A stretch of 53,930 nt of DNA from an uncultured Ignavibacteria bacterium (GCA_964391755.1 CAYMNI010000001.1:1-53930), one strand, 5' to 3'. Counted from the stretch's first letter, positions 23,867-32,110 are shown. A program made the numbers and translations. Notes: generated by a model not told the origin, from the sequence alone.

Positions 23867-24589
23867 CTACCTGGGACCTTTGATCAAATAGAGCATCTCC
23901 CTTACCGCTTTTTCAAAGCCCACCATGACCGCCCGGGCAACGATGGCGTGCCCGATGGAGAACTCGTGGAGATGATGGATCTGCACCAGATTAGAGATAT
24001 TCCGATAATTGAGGCCATGCCCCAAGTTTACGCCCAGGTTCAGCCTGTGGGCTAAAGTGGCAGCCTTCTCCAACCTCTCCAATTGAGCTATCTGAGCCCC
24101 CACCTTCTTGGTCAGGGCGTAGCTGTCGGTGTTCAGCTCCACGTAATCGGTGCCTATTCTGGCCGAGGTTTTGATGCTCTCCTCATCCGGATTGATAAAA
24201 AGGCTGACCAATCTCCCGTCCAACTGCAGCTTGGATACCGCCTGATTTAGCACCTGGTGATTGGCCTCAATCTCCAGACCGCCTTCGGTGGTCAGCTCAC
24301 CCTCCTTCTCCGGAACCAGGGTGACCATATCCGGTTTCACCTTGAGCGCTATATCCAGCATCTCGTCGGTGGCGGCCATCTCCAGATTCAAAGCCGTTTT
24401 GACCACCTGCCTTAAGATTCTGAGATCCCGGTCTTGGATGTGTCTCCGGTCGCCTCTCAGATGAACCGTGACTCCGTCTGCCCCCGCCATCTCCGCGGCT
24501 ATGGCCGCCGCCACCGGGTCCGGTTCCTCGGCCTTTCTGGCCTGTCTGACCGTGGCCACGTGATCCACGTTTATGCTCAACTTTACCAT
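23867..24589 (-). CDS. pdxJ: Pyridoxine 5'-phosphate synthase
   Basis: 240 aa. LSINVDHVATVRQAR, GVTVHLRGDRRHIQDRD, VTLVPE, LNLGHGLNY, EFSIGHAIVARA. Confidence 0.95.
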   Translation of the reverse strand: MVKLSINVDHVATVRQARKAEEPDPVAAAIAAEMAGADGVTVHLRGDRRHIQDRDLRILRQVVKTALNLEMAATDEMLDIALKVKPDMVTLVPEKEGELTTEGGLEIEANHQVLNQAVSKLQLDGRLVSLFINPDEESIKTSARIGTDYVELNTDSYALTKKVGAQIAQLERLEKAATLAHRLNLGVNLGHGLNYRNISNLVQIHHLHEFSIGHAIVARAVMVGFEKAVREMLYLIKGPR

Positions 24590-24625: not shown

Positions 24626-25177
24626 TCAGCTCGATTCGTCGATCCACCGCACGATCCTCCACAGATCATCCTGCTCCGACCGCTTGAAGTAGAACTCGGC
24701 GAATCCGGTGGCCTCCATCCGCAAATAGTCGTAATCACCGTCCGTGTCCTGAAGCGAAAGATGAAAAATCACCCGGCGGGCTTTCCAAGTCTCCTCTCCC
24801 ACGCTGTCAGAAGCAGATTTGACGATCCAAGTATCCAGCTTTATTTCATCGAAGGTTCTGAACAAAGCCCGGGTGACATATAAATCCCCTCCTCTACCGT
24901 CCTTGAAGATCTCCATCATCACCTCGGTGCCCACCACCTTGTCCAGGTCCCGGTATATGAAGATGAAGTCATCATCCAGCAGGTTCTCGTAGACGATGCT
25001 GTCCCGGTTCTCGTAAGCATATTTGAAGTTGTGCAGAACGCTGTCCGGGTCGGTCTGGGCAGCAAGGGGTTTGATGGTGCTGGGCCCTATGACCGACGGA
25101 GAGAAGGGATTGAAACAGCCTAAAAGACAGACGGCCGACGAGATGATCAGAAGCGGCAACCAGATTTCCCTCGACAT
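24626..25177 (-). CDS. Lipoprotein of unknown function (paralog of 25203..25829)
   Basis: Track ORF 24626..25189 starts at a GTG. I prefer the ATG at 25177, which has GGAAGGA just upstream. Signal and lipobox MSREIWLPLLIISSAVCLLGC; mature N-terminus CFNPF; block DPDSVLHNFKYAYENRDSIVYENLLDDDFIF. Confidence 0.7.
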   Translation of the reverse strand: MSREIWLPLLIISSAVCLLGCFNPFSPSVIGPSTIKPLAAQTDPDSVLHNFKYAYENRDSIVYENLLDDDFIFIYRDLDKVVGTEVMMEIFKDGRGGDLYVTRALFRTFDEIKLDTWIVKSASDSVGEETWKARRVIFHLSLQDTDGDYDYLRMEATGFAEFYFKRSEQDDLWRIVRWIDESS

Positions 25178-25202
25178 ATTCCTTCCCACAAGCGAAGATG
25201 AA

Positions 25203-25829
25203 TCATCTGAACTGGGCCTTAAAATCGCCCCAGTCGTATCCTCCCGAGACCTCCGGCAGATCGCTCCAAAAACAAATGCACCACCAGTTCAAAGAAGTCT
25301 GCTCTAAGTGAAAGGTGGCCGTTCCTTTGGCCAGCGTAGTGTCCCAGGGATCCGCTTTCATATCCACTATCACCAGTTCATAGTCCCTCAGCAGAACCGC
25401 CATGCTGTCGTTGATGTCGTCCTGGATCGGGGGATCCGGATCAAAACGAAGTTCCAGGCCGACGGAGTCCGCATTGCTCTTGAAGATGTTGAAGATCTGG
25501 GTGGTGACGCGGACCTCGGCATTTCTATCCCAGTCGGTGAAAAGCTCCTCCCGGTTGTCTTGAATCGCCTTTATGGAGTCCTCCGGCGCGGAGAATCCAA
25601 ATGATGAGTCGCACAAACAGCGGTCGAAGTTGGTTATAACCAATTCGTTATAGGCATATAACAGATTGTCAAGTACGTTCTCCGGTTGGGAAGGTGTCTC
25701 CCAGGTTCCCTTCGTCTCCGCTGCCGGCGTAGGGGATTCCCTGGTTCGAAAGGGATTCTTGCAGCCTTGCAGCGAAAAGAGCAAAATCAGACTCATCAGT
25801 GTCCACAGGATTCCGATTCTATTGCTCAT
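25203..25829 (-). CDS. Lipoprotein of unknown function (paralog of 24626..25177)
   Basis: Track ORF 25203..25928 would overlap the upstream barrel gene. An internal start at 25829 (or 25847) gives MSNRIGILWTLMSLILLFSLQGC (lipobox). Mature N-terminus CKNPF; block QPENVLDNLLYAYNELVITNFDRCLCDSSFGF. Confidence 0.7.
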   Translation of the reverse strand: MSNRIGILWTLMSLILLFSLQGCKNPFRTRESPTPAAETKGTWETPSQPENVLDNLLYAYNELVITNFDRCLCDSSFGFSAPEDSIKAIQDNREELFTDWDRNAEVRVTTQIFNIFKSNADSVGLELRFDPDPPIQDDINDSMAVLLRDYELVIVDMKADPWDTTLAKGTATFHLEQTSLNWWCICFWSDLPEVSGGYDWGDFKAQFR

Positions 25830-25915
25830 CTCTCCCAAGAACGGCATGGTTTGACCTTTGAGAATCGACTCATCCGGCCAGGGCAGCTTGGAGCCATAGC
25901 CCGACGGTGTTTGAG

Positions 25916-27751
25916 CTAAAACATCCACGCCACCGACACCGCAACATAGTCGGATATCTCGCGACTACTTTGCGTTTCATCCTGCAGCCGGTGAGCTGCC
26001 GACAGATACAGGCGGTTGTCCTGGTCCACCAAGTACCCTAAGGATATGGATATCGATTTTCGAAGAAACCGATTCTCCAGAACCCGCCTTTCCTTGACTA
26101 TTTCCTCCTCTCCCTCCCCAATCTCCTTGGCCTCATGATTCCACGACTTCCTCTCTTCATACGTGTAACGGGGAGAGATGGAGAACTTTCTTGCGGGCCG
26201 GAAATCCAGCGACAGGCTTATAGCGTTGGTCCTTTGGTCCCGGCTTATTTTCTGCACCCATTGATCCTTCCAGATGAGCGGACCGTCGTCTTCGTATCGA
26301 TAAGTATAACCTGCGAAAAAGGTCATCTTCTCGTTGTATCTGTACACCACCTCGGAAGAAGAGCTGGCTCGTCGCAGAAGCGAGTTCCTGACGCTTTCGC
26401 TGGCCTTCTCATAGTCGTAGTACCGGTAATTGGCTTTTATGCTGTAACTCTGTTTCACGGTCAGTTTCCGGTAGGGAAGCCAGGTGAAGGTGGGGGACAG
26501 AAAGTAAGTTTGGTCGTGGTTGTTGTCGTACGAGTTCTGTTCCGACATGTAGGTTAAGTGGAAGTTTTTGAATCCTCCTTCCAGTCTCATATCCAAGAAT
26601 GAATTGAAGATATGAAGGTACTCCCCCCAAGCCAGCACGGTCAGTTTGTCGCGATCGTTGAACTGCCCGGAGGCAGGCGCGAAGAACGAGGTTACCCCGA
26701 CGGATGCGGTCAGATACAGAGAATCCGCCCGGCTTAAACCAGCTGCAATCCTCCCCCCCAGCTCACCCCCCTCCATTCTCTGATCACCCTCCTCCCCTAA
26801 ATAATTCCATTCCGATCGCAGGTACTTGTATACGCCCTCCACCAGAATCCTCTCCCAAAGCTTCCTTTCCAGCCGGAGATCGGCGACAAGCGAGCTTGAG
26901 AGAAGATAGTGATACAGAGAATCCTGATCGGCCGAATATCTCCTGTCTCGATCGTATAGGTAGTCCAGGTCGGCAATCAGCTTCACTCCCAAGCCGATCC
27001 CGCGCGAGGCGGACATGTTGACGTCACGACGGTTCTTCTTCTGAGTAATGCCGGTGAAGAATCTCTTCTTCTCCCAGGCTTCCTTATAGGTTACCTGAAT
27101 GCTGTCCTGTCGACAGTTTGTGTCTGATGAAGAGTTCAGACACCTGGAAAAAGAGATGTTCAAGTCTCTTTTATGAATGGGTATCTTTTTCAGCTCTAAA
27201 AGCGACTGGCTCAGAGAGATATCGGTTTGAGCCCCGGAAAGGATTCGGGGTGACCACGAGATGGTTTGACTGAAATTGATGCCTTGCTCGGATCTATCCG
27301 GCTGCGTCAACGTGTTGTCTTGGTTGTCTATGAATTTAGCCCCCACCGATTGGACCCAGCTGATTCCGGCAAAACTCAACCGGGTGCTGATTCCGGCATT
27401 CGAGGTAGTCGATTCAGTCTTTTCTGCGGAGTATCGGTCCTGGGAGAAGAAAGCTCCCACACTCAGCTTCCGGGTCAGACGGTAGTCCAAGCTCAAGTCG
27501 ACGCTTCCGTCCTCCTGTAACCTGTCCGGTCCGTCCGATCTTTTGGTCAGAATCGAGTTTACCGAACTTAGAAAATTCCAGGATAAAGCCAAGGTGCTGT
27601 CTCCGGCATGATCGAAGACGAAGTTCCAACTGTAAGTTCGACGATCCTGGGAGAAATCACTTCTCAGGCCATAGCAAAGACCTACCTGGGAAAGACCAAA
27701 TGTAAGAAGAATCGAGGTGATCAGTAGATGAAGATATCTCTTCATATCCAC
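25916..27751 (-). CDS. Large outer-membrane beta-barrel protein, family unknown
   Basis: 611 aa. Signal peptide MDMKRYLHLLITSILLTFGLSQVGLCYG, alternating-hydrophobic strand pattern throughout, terminal ...YVAVSVAWMF (aromatic C-terminus typical of BAM substrates). I recognise no POTRA, plug or OstA domain. Confidence 0.7.
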   Translation of the reverse strand: MDMKRYLHLLITSILLTFGLSQVGLCYGLRSDFSQDRRTYSWNFVFDHAGDSTLALSWNFLSSVNSILTKRSDGPDRLQEDGSVDLSLDYRLTRKLSVGAFFSQDRYSAEKTESTTSNAGISTRLSFAGISWVQSVGAKFIDNQDNTLTQPDRSEQGINFSQTISWSPRILSGAQTDISLSQSLLELKKIPIHKRDLNISFSRCLNSSSDTNCRQDSIQVTYKEAWEKKRFFTGITQKKNRRDVNMSASRGIGLGVKLIADLDYLYDRDRRYSADQDSLYHYLLSSSLVADLRLERKLWERILVEGVYKYLRSEWNYLGEEGDQRMEGGELGGRIAAGLSRADSLYLTASVGVTSFFAPASGQFNDRDKLTVLAWGEYLHIFNSFLDMRLEGGFKNFHLTYMSEQNSYDNNHDQTYFLSPTFTWLPYRKLTVKQSYSIKANYRYYDYEKASESVRNSLLRRASSSSEVVYRYNEKMTFFAGYTYRYEDDGPLIWKDQWVQKISRDQRTNAISLSLDFRPARKFSISPRYTYEERKSWNHEAKEIGEGEEEIVKERRVLENRFLRKSISISLGYLVDQDNRLYLSAAHRLQDETQSSREISDYVAVSVAWMF

Positions 27752-27767: not shown

Positions 27768-28568
27768 TCACAAGAATTTGCTCAGAGCCGAGGACAGATT
27801 CGCGTATTCTTCGATGCTCAGCGTCTCGGGCCGTCTCCGCGGATCCACCTCGACGTCGTTTAAGATAAGTTCCAACTGTCGCTTTGGCAAATCCAAATTC
27901 GCCGATAGCGAATTGAGCACCGTTTTTCTTCTGTTTTGGAAAGCCGACCGGACCACTCTGAAAAACAGCTTCCTGTCGGCGAGAACAACTCGTGGTTGGG
28001 AAAGAAACGTTAGCCTGATCACCGACGAGTCCACCCGGGGAGCGGGAGAGAACGAGCCGGGCGTCAGATGAAAGAGGATTTCCAAGTCGGAGTGAAGCTG
28101 AATGGCGATGGACAAGGGAGACCAGTTCCGGCTTCCCGGATCGGCGCAAATCCTCATAGCCACCTCCTTCTGAACCATCAGCACACATAAAGAGATCAGG
28201 CTTTTTTGCTTCAGAAGGATTTCGAGAACGGGAGAGGTGATCTTGTAAGGCAGATTTCCCACGACCTTGCAGGTGTTCCACGGGCTCACCAGGCTTTCCA
28301 AATCCACCTGCAGAATGTCGGCATGTATTATATCCAGGTTCCCCCTGCCGCTGAACTTCCTTTGGAGAAGGTTGCACAATCTCCTGTCGATTTCGACTGC
28401 CATAACCTTCTTCGCCCTATCCAGAAGACGTCCGGTCAAAGCGCCCTTGCCTGCCCCTATCTCCAATACCGCCTCCTCTCCGCTCAGGCGCAGGTGGTCC
28501 ACGATCCTGCCGGCTGCTTCATCGTCGATAAGGAAATTCTGGCTTAGACTCTTGCGGGGTCTCACCAT
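27768..28568 (-). CDS. rsmA: 16S rRNA (adenine1518/1519-N6)-dimethyltransferase
   Basis: 266 aa. RPRKSLSQNFLID, VLEIGAGKGALT, VVGNLPYKITSP, and a C-terminal RRPETLSIEEY block. Confidence 0.95.
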   Translation of the reverse strand: MVRPRKSLSQNFLIDDEAAGRIVDHLRLSGEEAVLEIGAGKGALTGRLLDRAKKVMAVEIDRRLCNLLQRKFSGRGNLDIIHADILQVDLESLVSPWNTCKVVGNLPYKITSPVLEILLKQKSLISLCVLMVQKEVAMRICADPGSRNWSPLSIAIQLHSDLEILFHLTPGSFSPAPRVDSSVIRLTFLSQPRVVLADRKLFFRVVRSAFQNRRKTVLNSLSANLDLPKRQLELILNDVEVDPRRRPETLSIEEYANLSSALSKFL

Positions 28569-30184: not shown

Positions 30185-32110
30185 TCAATTCACCGATGAG
30201 CCGCCTTTAATCTCTTTTTCCGGGCAGATCAAGCTCAGCACCTTCCCGTCCTTTCCGGCAAGGAGCATGCCCTTGGACTCGACCCCTCTTATCTTCGCCG
30301 GCTTCAGATTGGCCACCACCACTATTCTCTTCCCGATCATCTCCTCCGGAGAATACTGCTCGGCGATTCCGGCCACGATCTGCCTGGTCTCGGAGCCCAA
30401 ATCGATCTTGAGTTTCAGGAGCTTGTCCGCACCCGGAACCCGCTCCGCCTCCAGCACCACCGCCACCCGCAGATCGACTTTGGAGAACTCCTCGTAGGAA
30501 ATTTCCTGGGGACTTTTCTGTTGGTTCACGATCACCTCGGGCTTTTCGGTTTTGATCTTCTTCTCAAGCCTGGGGAAGAGGGCCTCCAGCGTTCCGATTC
30601 TCTTTTCCGGCTCCAGCATTCCCCAAACCTCAGCGTCTTTGAGGCTCGGCTCACTCTTCTCGCCGGGAAGGCCCAGAAGCTCTCCGATTTTTTGGCACTT
30701 CTGCGGAAGCACAGGATAAAACAGAATCCCGATGATCCTCAACGTCTCGCAACTGGTGTAAAGAACCGTCGCCAACCTGTCTTCTTTACCGTCCCTTGCC
30801 AGTGCCCAGGGAGCTTGACTCTCAACGTATTTGTTGGCACTTTTAACCAGCGCCATGATTTGATCGATGGCCCGATTCAGATTGATCTTTTGAATGCTCT
30901 GCCAAACGATACCCGCACATCCGGCAGCTTCCTTTTTAAGCTCTTCGTCGGAGTCCTCATACTTGGAGGGACGGGGAATCACGCCCCCGCAGTAACTCCC
31001 CACCATCTTGATCACTCTGCTCACCAGATTCCCCAGGTCGTTGGCTAAATCGGCATTGTACTTTTCTACGAACTTCTCCGCCTGAATGTCTCCATCCTGA
31101 CCGAAGGGGAATTGGGTCAAGAGCAGGTATCGGGTAGCGTCTGATCCGTACTGCCGAACCAGGTATTCCGGATCGACCGCGTTCCCCAGGGTTTTGCTCA
31201 TCTTCTGCCCGTTTACGGTGAAGAATCCGTGGAGGAATATCTCGTCGGGAGGCTCCTCTCCCAAAGCCAGAAGCATGGCCGGCCAGAAGATGCAATGAAA
31301 CTTCAAAATGTCTTTGCCGATTAGGTGGGTCACTCTCCCCTCCTGCCACCATTTTTTAAACTGGGCCGGATCATCACCGTAGCCCACGGCGGAGATGTAG
31401 TTGGGAAGTGCGTCCACCCAAACGTAAGCATTCTGCTGCGGATCGAAGGGAAGCGGGATGCCCCAGGTTACCTTCTCCCGGGAGATGGAAAAATCATCCA
31501 GTCCCTGTTTGAGAAGCCCTAAAGTCTCCTTCTTTCTCTCCTCCGGGGAGATCTTCAGTCGGTCGGTGCGTATCAACTCCTCCACTTTCTGAAGGTAAGA
31601 GGAGAGCCGGAAGAAGTAATTCTTCTCCGTAACTCTCTTGGGCTGGCGAAGATGATCCGGACAGAGTCCGTCCACCAACTCCTTTTCGGTAATGAATTTC
31701 TCGCATCCCACACAGTAAAGCCCGGAGTACTCTCCCGGGTAGACGATTTTCTGCCCATCCTGGGTAACGGCTTGGTCGAGACGCGCAAGAAGTTTCTCCA
31801 CGGCCTGGTGATGGCGGGCGTCCGTGGTTCGCACGAAGTAATCGTAGGAGACATCCAGGCTGCTCCATGCCCTCTTGAAGTGACCGACGTTAAGGTCGCA
31901 CAATTCCTGCGGGGTTTTGCCGAATTTCTTTGCCGTCTCCTCCACTTTGGATCCATGTTCATCCGTGCCCGTTAGGAAAAAAGTATCCTCTCCCCCGGCT
32001 CGATGATAGCGACTCAACACGTCGGCCGCGATGGTAGTGTAAGCCTGACCTATATGTGGTTTGTCGTTGACGTAGTAAATGGGAGTGGTAACCATGAATC
32101 TTTGGGCCAA
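30185..32110 (-). CDS. metG: Methionine--tRNA ligase with C-terminal Trbp111-like tRNA-binding domain
   Basis: 641 aa. TTPIYYVNDKPHIGQAYT (HIGH), KMSKTLGN (KMSKS), zinc knuckle CVGCEKF...CPDH, C-terminal LRVAVVLEAERVPGADKLLKLKIDLG OB-fold. TTG start with AGGAGGAGG upstream. Confidence 0.95.
   Translation of the reverse strand: MAQRFMVTTPIYYVNDKPHIGQAYTTIAADVLSRYHRAGGEDTFFLTGTDEHGSKVEETAKKFGKTPQELCDLNVGHFKRAWSSLDVSYDYFVRTTDARHHQAVEKLLARLDQAVTQDGQKIVYPGEYSGLYCVGCEKFITEKELVDGLCPDHLRQPKRVTEKNYFFRLSSYLQKVEELIRTDRLKISPEERKKETLGLLKQGLDDFSISREKVTWGIPLPFDPQQNAYVWVDALPNYISAVGYGDDPAQFKKWWQEGRVTHLIGKDILKFHCIFWPAMLLALGEEPPDEIFLHGFFTVNGQKMSKTLGNAVDPEYLVRQYGSDATRYLLLTQFPFGQDGDIQAEKFVEKYNADLANDLGNLVSRVIKMVGSYCGGVIPRPSKYEDSDEELKKEAAGCAGIVWQSIQKINLNRAIDQIMALVKSANKYVESQAPWALARDGKEDRLATVLYTSCETLRIIGILFYPVLPQKCQKIGELLGLPGEKSEPSLKDAEVWGMLEPEKRIGTLEALFPRLEKKIKTEKPEVIVNQQKSPQEISYEEFSKVDLRVAVVLEAERVPGADKLLKLKIDLGSETRQIVAGIAEQYSPEEMIGKRIVVVANLKPAKIRGVESKGMLLAGKDGKVLSLICPEKEIKGGSSVN

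Follow-up and report, generated by a model that had tools for sequence, protein, structure and literature searches.

To our knowledge, little has been established about how the outer membrane (OM) is built and maintained outside Proteobacteria. Well-known large β-barrels of this membrane do not stand open; occlusion is seen in LptD, MtrB, ushers and TonB-dependent transporters alike. The gene of one of them, lptD of Escherichia coli, lies in the cluster lptD-surA-pdxA-rsmA. In the E. coli LptD-LptE complex (PDB 4rhb, 5iv9) a very large plug-less barrel of 26 strands is closed by the lipoprotein LptE (~170 aa), which also handles the amphipathic cargo, and the pair serves a constitutive envelope function. 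MtrB, part of the porin-cytochrome complex MtrCAB of Shewanella (PDB 6r2q), forms a sheath of 26 strands; one partner protein fills its lumen, and a lipoprotein is a further partner.

Here we describe three neighbouring genes that invite comparison with these systems. They lie in a DNA stretch of 53,930 nucleotides (the window) deposited as an uncultured Ignavibacteria bacterium (GCA_964391755.1 CAYMNI010000001.1:1-53930), which the source names of its homologs place in Zixibacteria. Between rsmA and pdxJ, one gene encodes a 611-aa protein with the features of an OM β-barrel and the other two encode predicted lipoproteins, termed lipo1 and lipo2. A sequence-only reading of the window had proposed that the trio forms an uncharacterised OM complex of a barrel and two lipoproteins, possibly with a housekeeping role. 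In the analysis below the genes indeed prove uncharacterised, adjacent and co-occurring; the physical complex is something we infer. We lean, by a little, towards a reading in which the trio is one conserved OM unit, distinct from the translocon for lipopolysaccharide (LPS), whose lipoproteins would plug or gate a plug-less barrel.

A predicted 28-strand barrel without a known family

The 611-aa protein has a Sec signal peptide, with a hydrophobic helix at residues 3-20, and ends in the β-signal ...VAVSVAWMF. Its AlphaFold 2 (AF2) model, built on a 56-sequence alignment, has a mean predicted local distance difference test score (pLDDT) of 80.3 and a predicted template modelling score (pTM) of 0.62. 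The model contains 28 DSSP strands between residues 28 and 609, the first of which follows straight after the signal peptide. It has no separate domain, and all connecting loops are at most 13 residues long; closure of the barrel and the size of its lumen were judged from the secondary-structure listing, not from the coordinates. The strands show a weak alternation of hydrophobic and polar residues. With its signal peptide, all-β hairpins and aromatic-ended β-signal, the protein has the general hallmarks of an OM β-barrel.

Searches with the barrel sequence gave no Pfam match at E ≤ 1, POTRA, plug, OstA, LptD, LptD_2, Omp85, MtrB_PioB, TonB_dep_Rec and DUF560 included. The sole NCBIfam line scored 15 bits against a cut-off of 350, single-sequence and profile searches of the PDB sequences found no match, and no Pfam domain covers the barrel in ten distant homologs. 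When the model was compared with the PDB by Foldseek, only OM barrels were recovered (probability 1.00). The best match was MtrB (6r2q_B; E 4.6e-10, TMq 0.47, 8 % identity), and further matches were to TonB-dependent transporters (TM 0.3-0.39) and LptD (TM 0.2-0.3), all at 8-11 % identity. Judged on the model, these resemblances are the generic likeness of large barrels to each other and do not indicate membership of any of the three families.

The length of the protein depends on the start codon. The GTG start lies 16 nt behind the rsmA stop, and an alternative ATG is found two codons inside. The source annotation begins at Leu54 (558 aa, P0001), a start with which the signal peptide would be lost together with the first two strands. 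We favour the 609-611-aa form, because homologs of 597-629 aa cover 96-100 % of the query.

Two paralogous lipoproteins with a predicted NTF2-like fold

Both downstream genes encode proteins with a hydrophobic signal and a lipobox. In lipo1 the lipobox is LILLFSLQG-C (Cys codon 25763-25761) and the mature protein begins with CKNPFRTR; in lipo2 it is SSAVCLLG-C (Cys codon 25117-25115), followed by the motif C-F-N-P-F-S-P (25117-25097, Cys included). The Cys behind the hydrophobic signal is kept in all listed lipo2 orthologs and in nearly all lipo1 orthologs. The three residues preceding it vary among orthologs, and the strict pattern [LVI][ASTVI][GAS]-C is not always fitted. By signal and lipobox, both are predicted lipoproteins.

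The two proteins are paralogs. BLASTP aligns lipo1 and lipo2 over 121 residues at 31 % identity (E 2e-6), and hhalign of their profiles, made from 24 and 23 orthologs, gives a probability of 98.4 % (E 6e-15), its 152 columns covering the mature proteins in full. For lipo2, the AF2 model (pLDDT 88.2, pTM 0.75) consists of a tether of ~20 residues ahead of an α+β cone domain, with secondary structure elements in the order H-H-E-E-H-E-E-E-E. The best 50 Foldseek matches of this model in the PDB are all NTF2, SnoaL, ketosteroid-isomerase or CaMKII-hub folds, with TMt up to 0.70. Thus, lipo2 has, as modelled, an NTF2-like fold, and the profile-profile alignment suggests the same fold for lipo1. Sequence searches recover little of this relationship. 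Neither lipoprotein matched Pfam, LptE (PF04390) included, or NCBIfam, and lipo2 found no match among the PDB sequences by single-sequence or profile search. Among 21 lipo2 homologs searched against Pfam, matches to the NTF2 clan (DUF4440, SnoaL_3) were all below threshold, with best E-values of 0.011-0.05 in two to four of the 21 members, from several phyla.

In the Zixibacteria loci examined, lipo1 orthologs mostly carry C(x)KNPF. The lipo2 family (122 homologs, 49-79 % identity) has a set of residues that do not vary between Zixibacteria, KSB1, Calditrichota and Ignavibacteria-like genomes: C25, N27, P28, F29 and P31 at the mature N-terminus, and N54, Y59, D63, Y67, D81, T106, W182 and D184 further on. 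Among the ~240 lipobox-bearing open reading frames (ORFs) in the whole assembly to which the window belongs, C-x-NPF behind a signal sequence occurs in lipo1 and lipo2 only. We therefore regard C-x-NPF-x-P as private to the module; a general role in lipoprotein sorting, which we had considered, is rejected on the same count. Natural fusions of lipo1 with lipo2, or of the barrel with either lipoprotein, were not found among the homologs; long frames in high-GC genomes proved to be upstream read-through.

Zixibacteria lipo2 proteins also carry an EF-hand-like D-x-D-G-D loop (DTDGDYDY) around residues 146-153. Pfam matches to EF-hands are weak and occur in three lipo2 members, and the loop is shortened or absent in orthologs from KSB1, Ignavibacteria and other groups.

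All that the sequence-only reading had observed in the three genes holds. Gene order, intergenic gaps, lipoboxes, the C[KF]NPF starts and the terminal Phe are all as it described them, and Pfam, NCBIfam and the AF2 model, with its strands from residue 28 onwards, bear out a barrel without POTRA, plug or OstA/LptD N-domain. The paralogy of the lipoproteins, which it had read from shared motifs, extends over their full mature length, and its guess of an NTF2/SnoaL-like fold agrees with the lipo2 model. It had proposed counting the strands on a predicted barrel, which gives the 28 reported above. As findings that would speak against its view it had named a barrel belonging to a known porin or usher family and lipoproteins that are known enzymes; no family match was obtained for any of the three.

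The barrel and the lipoproteins are inherited together

We recorded for samples of genomes whether both the barrel and lipo2, the barrel only, lipo2 only or neither were present. In 151 genomes drawn evenly from Zixibacteria the counts were 54, 0, 1 and 96 (φ 0.99), and the lone genome with lipo2 only is a fragmented assembly. In 301 Bacteroidota genomes, where the genes are unlinked, they were 103, 1, 5 and 192 (φ 0.96, Fisher p 2e-73), and in 151 genomes of the phylum that contains KSB1 they were 133, 2, 6 and 10 (p 4e-10); these p-values ignore phylogeny, and independent events are far fewer than genomes. Hence the module is present in most sampled genomes of the KSB1/Calditrichota group and in about one third of those of Bacteroidota and Zixibacteria. 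The co-occurrence in other lineages that the sequence-only reading had suggested profiling is thus found in three phylum-level samples, even where the genes are unlinked. In the Zixibacteria family f8, genera that carry both genes stand beside genera that lack the two.

Each gene is present in a single copy, giving 1:1:1 per genome. A profile of the KSB1-type barrel detects no second copy in Zixibacteria, which is why we consider the Zixibacteria barrel the ortholog of the barrel of other phyla. Measured against RsmA, lipo2 is the more slowly evolving protein and the barrel the less conserved one. Mirror-tree partial correlations that control for rsmA range from 0.11 to 0.29.

The barrel family is widespread. 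Besides 60 full-length homologs with 36-67 % identity, 569 clusters at E ≤ 1e-3, all of ~580-700 aa, came up when 1.84 billion representative proteins were searched by profile. A scan of species-representative genomes yielded 80 loci from KSB1, Calditrichota, Zhuqueibacterota and Ignavibacteria-like or other Bacteroidota metagenome-assembled genomes (MAGs). Orthologs are also found in the cultured Rhodothermus marinus, R. profundi, R. bifroesti and Rhodocaloribacter litoris, where they are annotated merely as 'hypothetical protein' (in R. marinus, P0329, ABUL39_13690) or 'outer membrane beta-barrel protein'. Like the barrel, the lipoprotein family reaches KSB1, Calditrichota, Zhuqueibacterota, Ignavibacteria-like Bacteroidota and Rhodothermales. 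Literature searches returned nothing on the barrel or the lipoprotein family.

Gene order in Zixibacteria

The coordinates of the trio and its neighbours are given in Table 1. Between the barrel and lipo1 lie 68 nt, or 86 nt if lipo1 starts at the second of its two candidate ATGs, and the gaps that follow are 25 nt (lipo1-lipo2) and 36 nt (lipo2-pdxJ). A promoter and terminator scan of the locus gave fewer sites than shuffled sequence.

Table 1. Genes at the barrel-lipoprotein locus of the window, and examples of the RsbW-like gene that follows the barrel in other phyla.
Feature	Coordinates	Strand	Remarks
metG	30185-32110	-	
TatD-radical SAM fusion ORF, 453 aa	28647-30008	-	TatD 268 bits, radical SAM 56 bits
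rsmA (16S rRNA adenine dimethyltransferase)	27768-28568	-	Pfam RrnaAD, 209 bits; upstream of barrel
Barrel ORF, 611 aa	25916-27751	-	GTG start; 609 aa if ATG 27745 used
lipo1 (first lipoprotein paralog)	25203-25847	-	start ATG 25847 or ATG 25829
lipo2 (second lipoprotein, predicted NTF2-like)	24626-25177	-	start ATG 25177
pdxJ	23867-24589	-	Pfam PdxJ, 311 bits; downstream of lipo2
RsbW-like gene after barrel, example	L028:8259-8678		
RsbW-like gene after barrel, example	L082:7907-8317		
RsbW-like gene after barrel, example	L077:7913-8350		

The core order rsmA-barrel-lipo1-lipo2 is found in all ten closer Zixibacteria loci that were inspected, and (metG-)tatD-rsmA-barrel-lipo1-lipo2 in all 12 loci from other families of the phylum, often with overlapping frames. 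Across these 22 loci most frames overlap or are tightly spaced. pdxJ is a less constant neighbour: of the 12 distant loci, one (L021) has it directly after lipo2 and two (L019 and L022) have it 1.2-1.3 kb downstream, and in the remaining nine no pdxJ was found. The expectation that the trio stays near both flanking genes is therefore borne out for rsmA in every Zixibacteria locus, but for pdxJ in direct adjacency only once among the 12, and other phyla differ. With homologs conserved and syntenic in dozens of genomes, the conservation of the three genes goes far beyond chance.

The gene upstream of rsmA encodes a fusion in which the TatD domain is complete. Related Zixibacteria loci have either such a fusion (~455-484 aa) or TatD alone (~253-276 aa).

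Different gene neighbourhoods in other phyla

Beyond Zixibacteria, the barrel and the lipoproteins are encoded at separate loci in most lineages. There the barrel gene as a rule stands behind eno and/or ftsB (DivIC). Of 74 loci, 43 have eno no more than 1.5 kb upstream of the barrel, and 20 have a recognisable DivIC gene as its immediate upstream neighbour. In 69 of the 72 loci for which downstream DNA is available, a gene of ~140 aa for a HATPase_c_2 (RsbW/SpoIIAB-like) protein stands directly 3' of the barrel on the same strand (examples in Table 1). The post-ftsB position is held by the barrel in KSB1, Calditrichota and two MAG chromosomes, which fits a relocation of the barrel gene into the rsmA operon in Zixibacteria. 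The linkage to rsmA and pdxJ is accordingly lineage-specific.

The lipoprotein genes were sought in 12 barrel-bearing genomes from outside Zixibacteria, all of which encode lipo2 elsewhere (E 1e-19 to 1e-36), often with lipo1 just upstream. Their contexts include lipo1-lipo2-pdxJ, recR-lipo1-lipo2-pheA and lipo1-lipo2-ruvB. The first of these occurs in two MAG chromosomes (L119:6845-8906, L120:6562-8552) whose barrel lies elsewhere after ftsB, so that the link between the lipoproteins and pdxJ must predate the operon of Zixibacteria.

Some further features of these neighbourhoods were noted. The window genome has, on another contig (C39:857-2765, minus strand), eno-ftsB followed, in the place that the barrel takes in those other lineages, by an ORF that by eye looks like recO. 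It also encodes a single ortholog of the RsbW-like kinase (C16:3482-3985, minus strand), beside a STAS-like gene. Outside Zixibacteria, linkage of an OM barrel to a cytoplasmic partner-switching kinase recurs across phyla. At one KSB1 locus, two genes of the Omp85 family, of which one includes POTRA, come after the barrel and the RsbW-like gene (L028:8726-11240), and behind them stand ORFs tentatively read as rsmE and a HIT-family gene. This locus is a second case of the barrel among genes for OM biogenesis and rRNA methyltransferases.

A proposed plugged or gated barrel and the alternatives

How might the three proteins work? Because it lacks a plug and its loops are short, a barrel of ~28 strands could hardly sit open in the membrane, to judge from other large barrels that are occluded. 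The solved folds nearest to its model are likewise filled, by a partner protein in MtrB and LptD and by a plug in TonB-dependent transporters. The lipoproteins are the candidates for closing it, since they are its sole conserved, co-inherited and envelope-located partners. The strict 1:1:1 copy number and the repeated fusion into a single operon favour a stoichiometric assembly. In the reading we lean towards, lipo1 and lipo2 would each be held on the inner leaflet of the OM by the N-terminal lipid and a tether of ~20 residues that starts with NPF-x-P. The two would pair as a pseudo-symmetric heterodimer that acts from the periplasm, in or under the lumen, as plug or gate of the barrel, and the invariant NPF-x-P segment may contact the barrel. 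The unit would be constitutive, serve a housekeeping function and be inherited from an early ancestor of the Fibrobacteres-Chlorobi-Bacteroidetes (FCB) group. The weakest step concerns cargo. The NTF2 fold typically binds small hydrophobic ligands, and MlaC is a periplasmic lipid carrier with an NTF2-like domain. By analogy, the cone pockets of lipo1 and lipo2 might bind a hydrophobic ligand and pass it on, as LptE serves LptD.

Several points weigh against this reading. The association is deduced from single-chain models and genomics, and the pTM of the barrel model, whose closure and lumen were not read from coordinates, is just 0.62. Gain and loss events that are independent of each other are few, so that shared ancestry inflates the co-occurrence, and once species divergence is taken into account, the mirror-tree analysis leaves only a weak signal (partial r 0.1-0.3). 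Adjacency of the genes is confined to Zixibacteria and a few other lineages. Nothing in the evidence points to a particular ligand, and a hydrophobic cargo is at most possible.

A bolder version, which we consider rather unlikely, sees in the trio an ancient and hitherto unrecognised OM machine of the FCB superphylum, in which a 28-strand barrel gated by an NTF2-like heterodimer moves a non-LPS hydrophobic component of the envelope into or across the OM. This component might be a phospholipid or some other lipid of the membrane, a polymer linked to lipid, or a pigment. The machine would be coupled in most phyla to the partner-switching kinase of RsbW type whose gene comes right after that of the barrel, and would have been lost or replaced in Bacteroidia and some Zixibacteria families.

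The same co-occurrence and operon data would equally suit lipoproteins that are exposed on the cell surface, with the barrel as their dedicated translocon or anchor in the manner of Slam/type XI secretion or of a SusC lid, for example for capturing hydrophobic nutrients at the surface. N-terminal export signals of lipoproteins are known from Bacteroidota, and an invariant motif right after the lipidated Cys could be such a recognition signal; moreover, NTF2 pockets would suit small hydrophobic molecules. We nevertheless doubt this explanation. With the motif confined to two proteins, the translocon would serve just two substrates; the barrel has neither the TPR or other periplasmic domain of Slam nor the plug and TonB box of SusC, and its surroundings are of the housekeeping type, with no genes for nutrient uptake. 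Less dependent on contact between the proteins is a shared pathway without a stable complex, in which the barrel is a channel and the NTF2-like lipoproteins are periplasmic enzymes or carriers that act on the same substrate. The need to close a plug-less, short-loop barrel of 28 strands, if correctly deduced, together with the 1:1:1 copy number and the repeated operon fusion, makes this improbable in our view, even though most phyla encode the barrel apart from the lipoprotein pair, the mirror-tree signal is weak and the invariant polar residues of lipo2 (N54, Y59, D63, Y67, D81 and D184) recall NTF2-type enzymes.

It is decidedly improbable that the genes are unrelated neighbours, the barrel being an ordinary large porin whose distribution the lipoproteins share by coincidence. 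Synteny could be mere inertia in vertically inherited housekeeping surroundings, and absences are clade-wise, affecting whole Zixibacteria families (f4, f5, f7 and f13 lack the trio) and two thirds of the Bacteroidota sample. Yet the genera of family f8 have both genes or neither, the genes co-occur in three phylum samples, and porins have 14-18 strands and constricting loops, in contrast to the 28 strands predicted here. There is, finally, scarcely any chance that the trio is a divergent LptD/LptE pair acting as the LPS translocon of the lineage. A large barrel and a lipoprotein beside rsmA and a pdx gene do recall E. coli, and LptD is among the Foldseek matches. However, the barrel lacks an OstA domain and matches no LptD profile of Pfam, its TM-scores to LptD are 0.2-0.3, the lipoproteins are predicted to be NTF2-like, and a canonical LptD is encoded elsewhere in the genome, with LptE present in genomes of the same genus.

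Relation to known outer membrane systems

The canonical LptD of the window genome lies on another contig (C136; LptD_2 264 bits, LptD_N 47.5 bits), and an LptD identity of the barrel was rejected on this ground. LptE (PF04390) was not found in the assembly of the window, which is 85 % complete; it is present in 111 of the 151 genomes of the phylum sample, with or without the trio. Because LptD is present and LptE is distributed independently of the trio, the trio is neither LptD/LptE nor a replacement for it. The parallel that the sequence-only reading had drawn with the E. coli lptD-surA-pdxA-rsmA cluster thus stands for the layout, but as a mere analogy, given the separate LptD of the genome and the LptE of the genus. 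A link to flagella was also considered and rejected: FlgI is found in 126 of the 151 genomes, including families that lack the trio, and is absent from the window's own order (families f1-f3), in which the trio is present.

What has been identified is a single-copy module of three predicted OM proteins that is encoded in housekeeping operons and is unassigned in Pfam, NCBIfam and the PDB. With ~28 predicted strands, the barrel would be among the largest formed by a single chain, SprA apart. Its presence in R. marinus, which is cultivable and genetically tractable, makes the function experimentally approachable. Should the lipoproteins plug and serve the barrel, the module would be a further barrel-lipoprotein conduit alongside LptDE.

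Compared with other barrels, the closest fold match is MtrB, and the trio differs from the MtrCAB system in that cytochrome genes are absent nearby, no MtrB_PioB match is found and the similarity amounts to 8 % identity at a TM-score of 0.47. TonB-dependent transporters, including SusC, have an N-terminal plug and a 22-strand barrel, whereas the barrel described here has no plug and 28 predicted strands, at TM-scores of 0.3-0.39; what SusC-SusD shares with the trio is the coupling of an OM barrel to a dedicated lipoprotein, although SusD is all-helical. The same kind of functional coupling to dedicated lipoproteins is seen in Slam/type XI secretion, whose 14-strand DUF560 barrel and periplasmic TPR domain contrast with 28 strands and no helical domain. 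Omp85 proteins such as BamA and TamA combine POTRA with a 16-strand barrel. The window barrel matches neither, though the same scan detects the Omp85 neighbours of the KSB1 barrel. On the side of the lipoproteins, the cone fold modelled for lipo2 is that of NTF2-like, SnoaL and DUF4440 proteins (PDB 3rob, 3hx8, 3b8l), from which lipo1 and lipo2 are set apart by their predicted lipid anchor, the invariant C-x-NPF-x-P and their existence as a conserved pair of paralogs tied to a barrel. The nearest overall parallel remains LptD-LptE, likewise a very large plug-less barrel with a lipoprotein, encoded near rsmA and a pdx gene. Unlike LptD, the barrel has ~28 strands, lacks the N-terminal OstA jellyroll and shows no kinship in sequence or profile, and in place of LptE it has two putative partners, probably NTF2-like, without a match to the LptE family. 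The family is new, while its architecture, a large barrel with a lipoprotein, is a known one.

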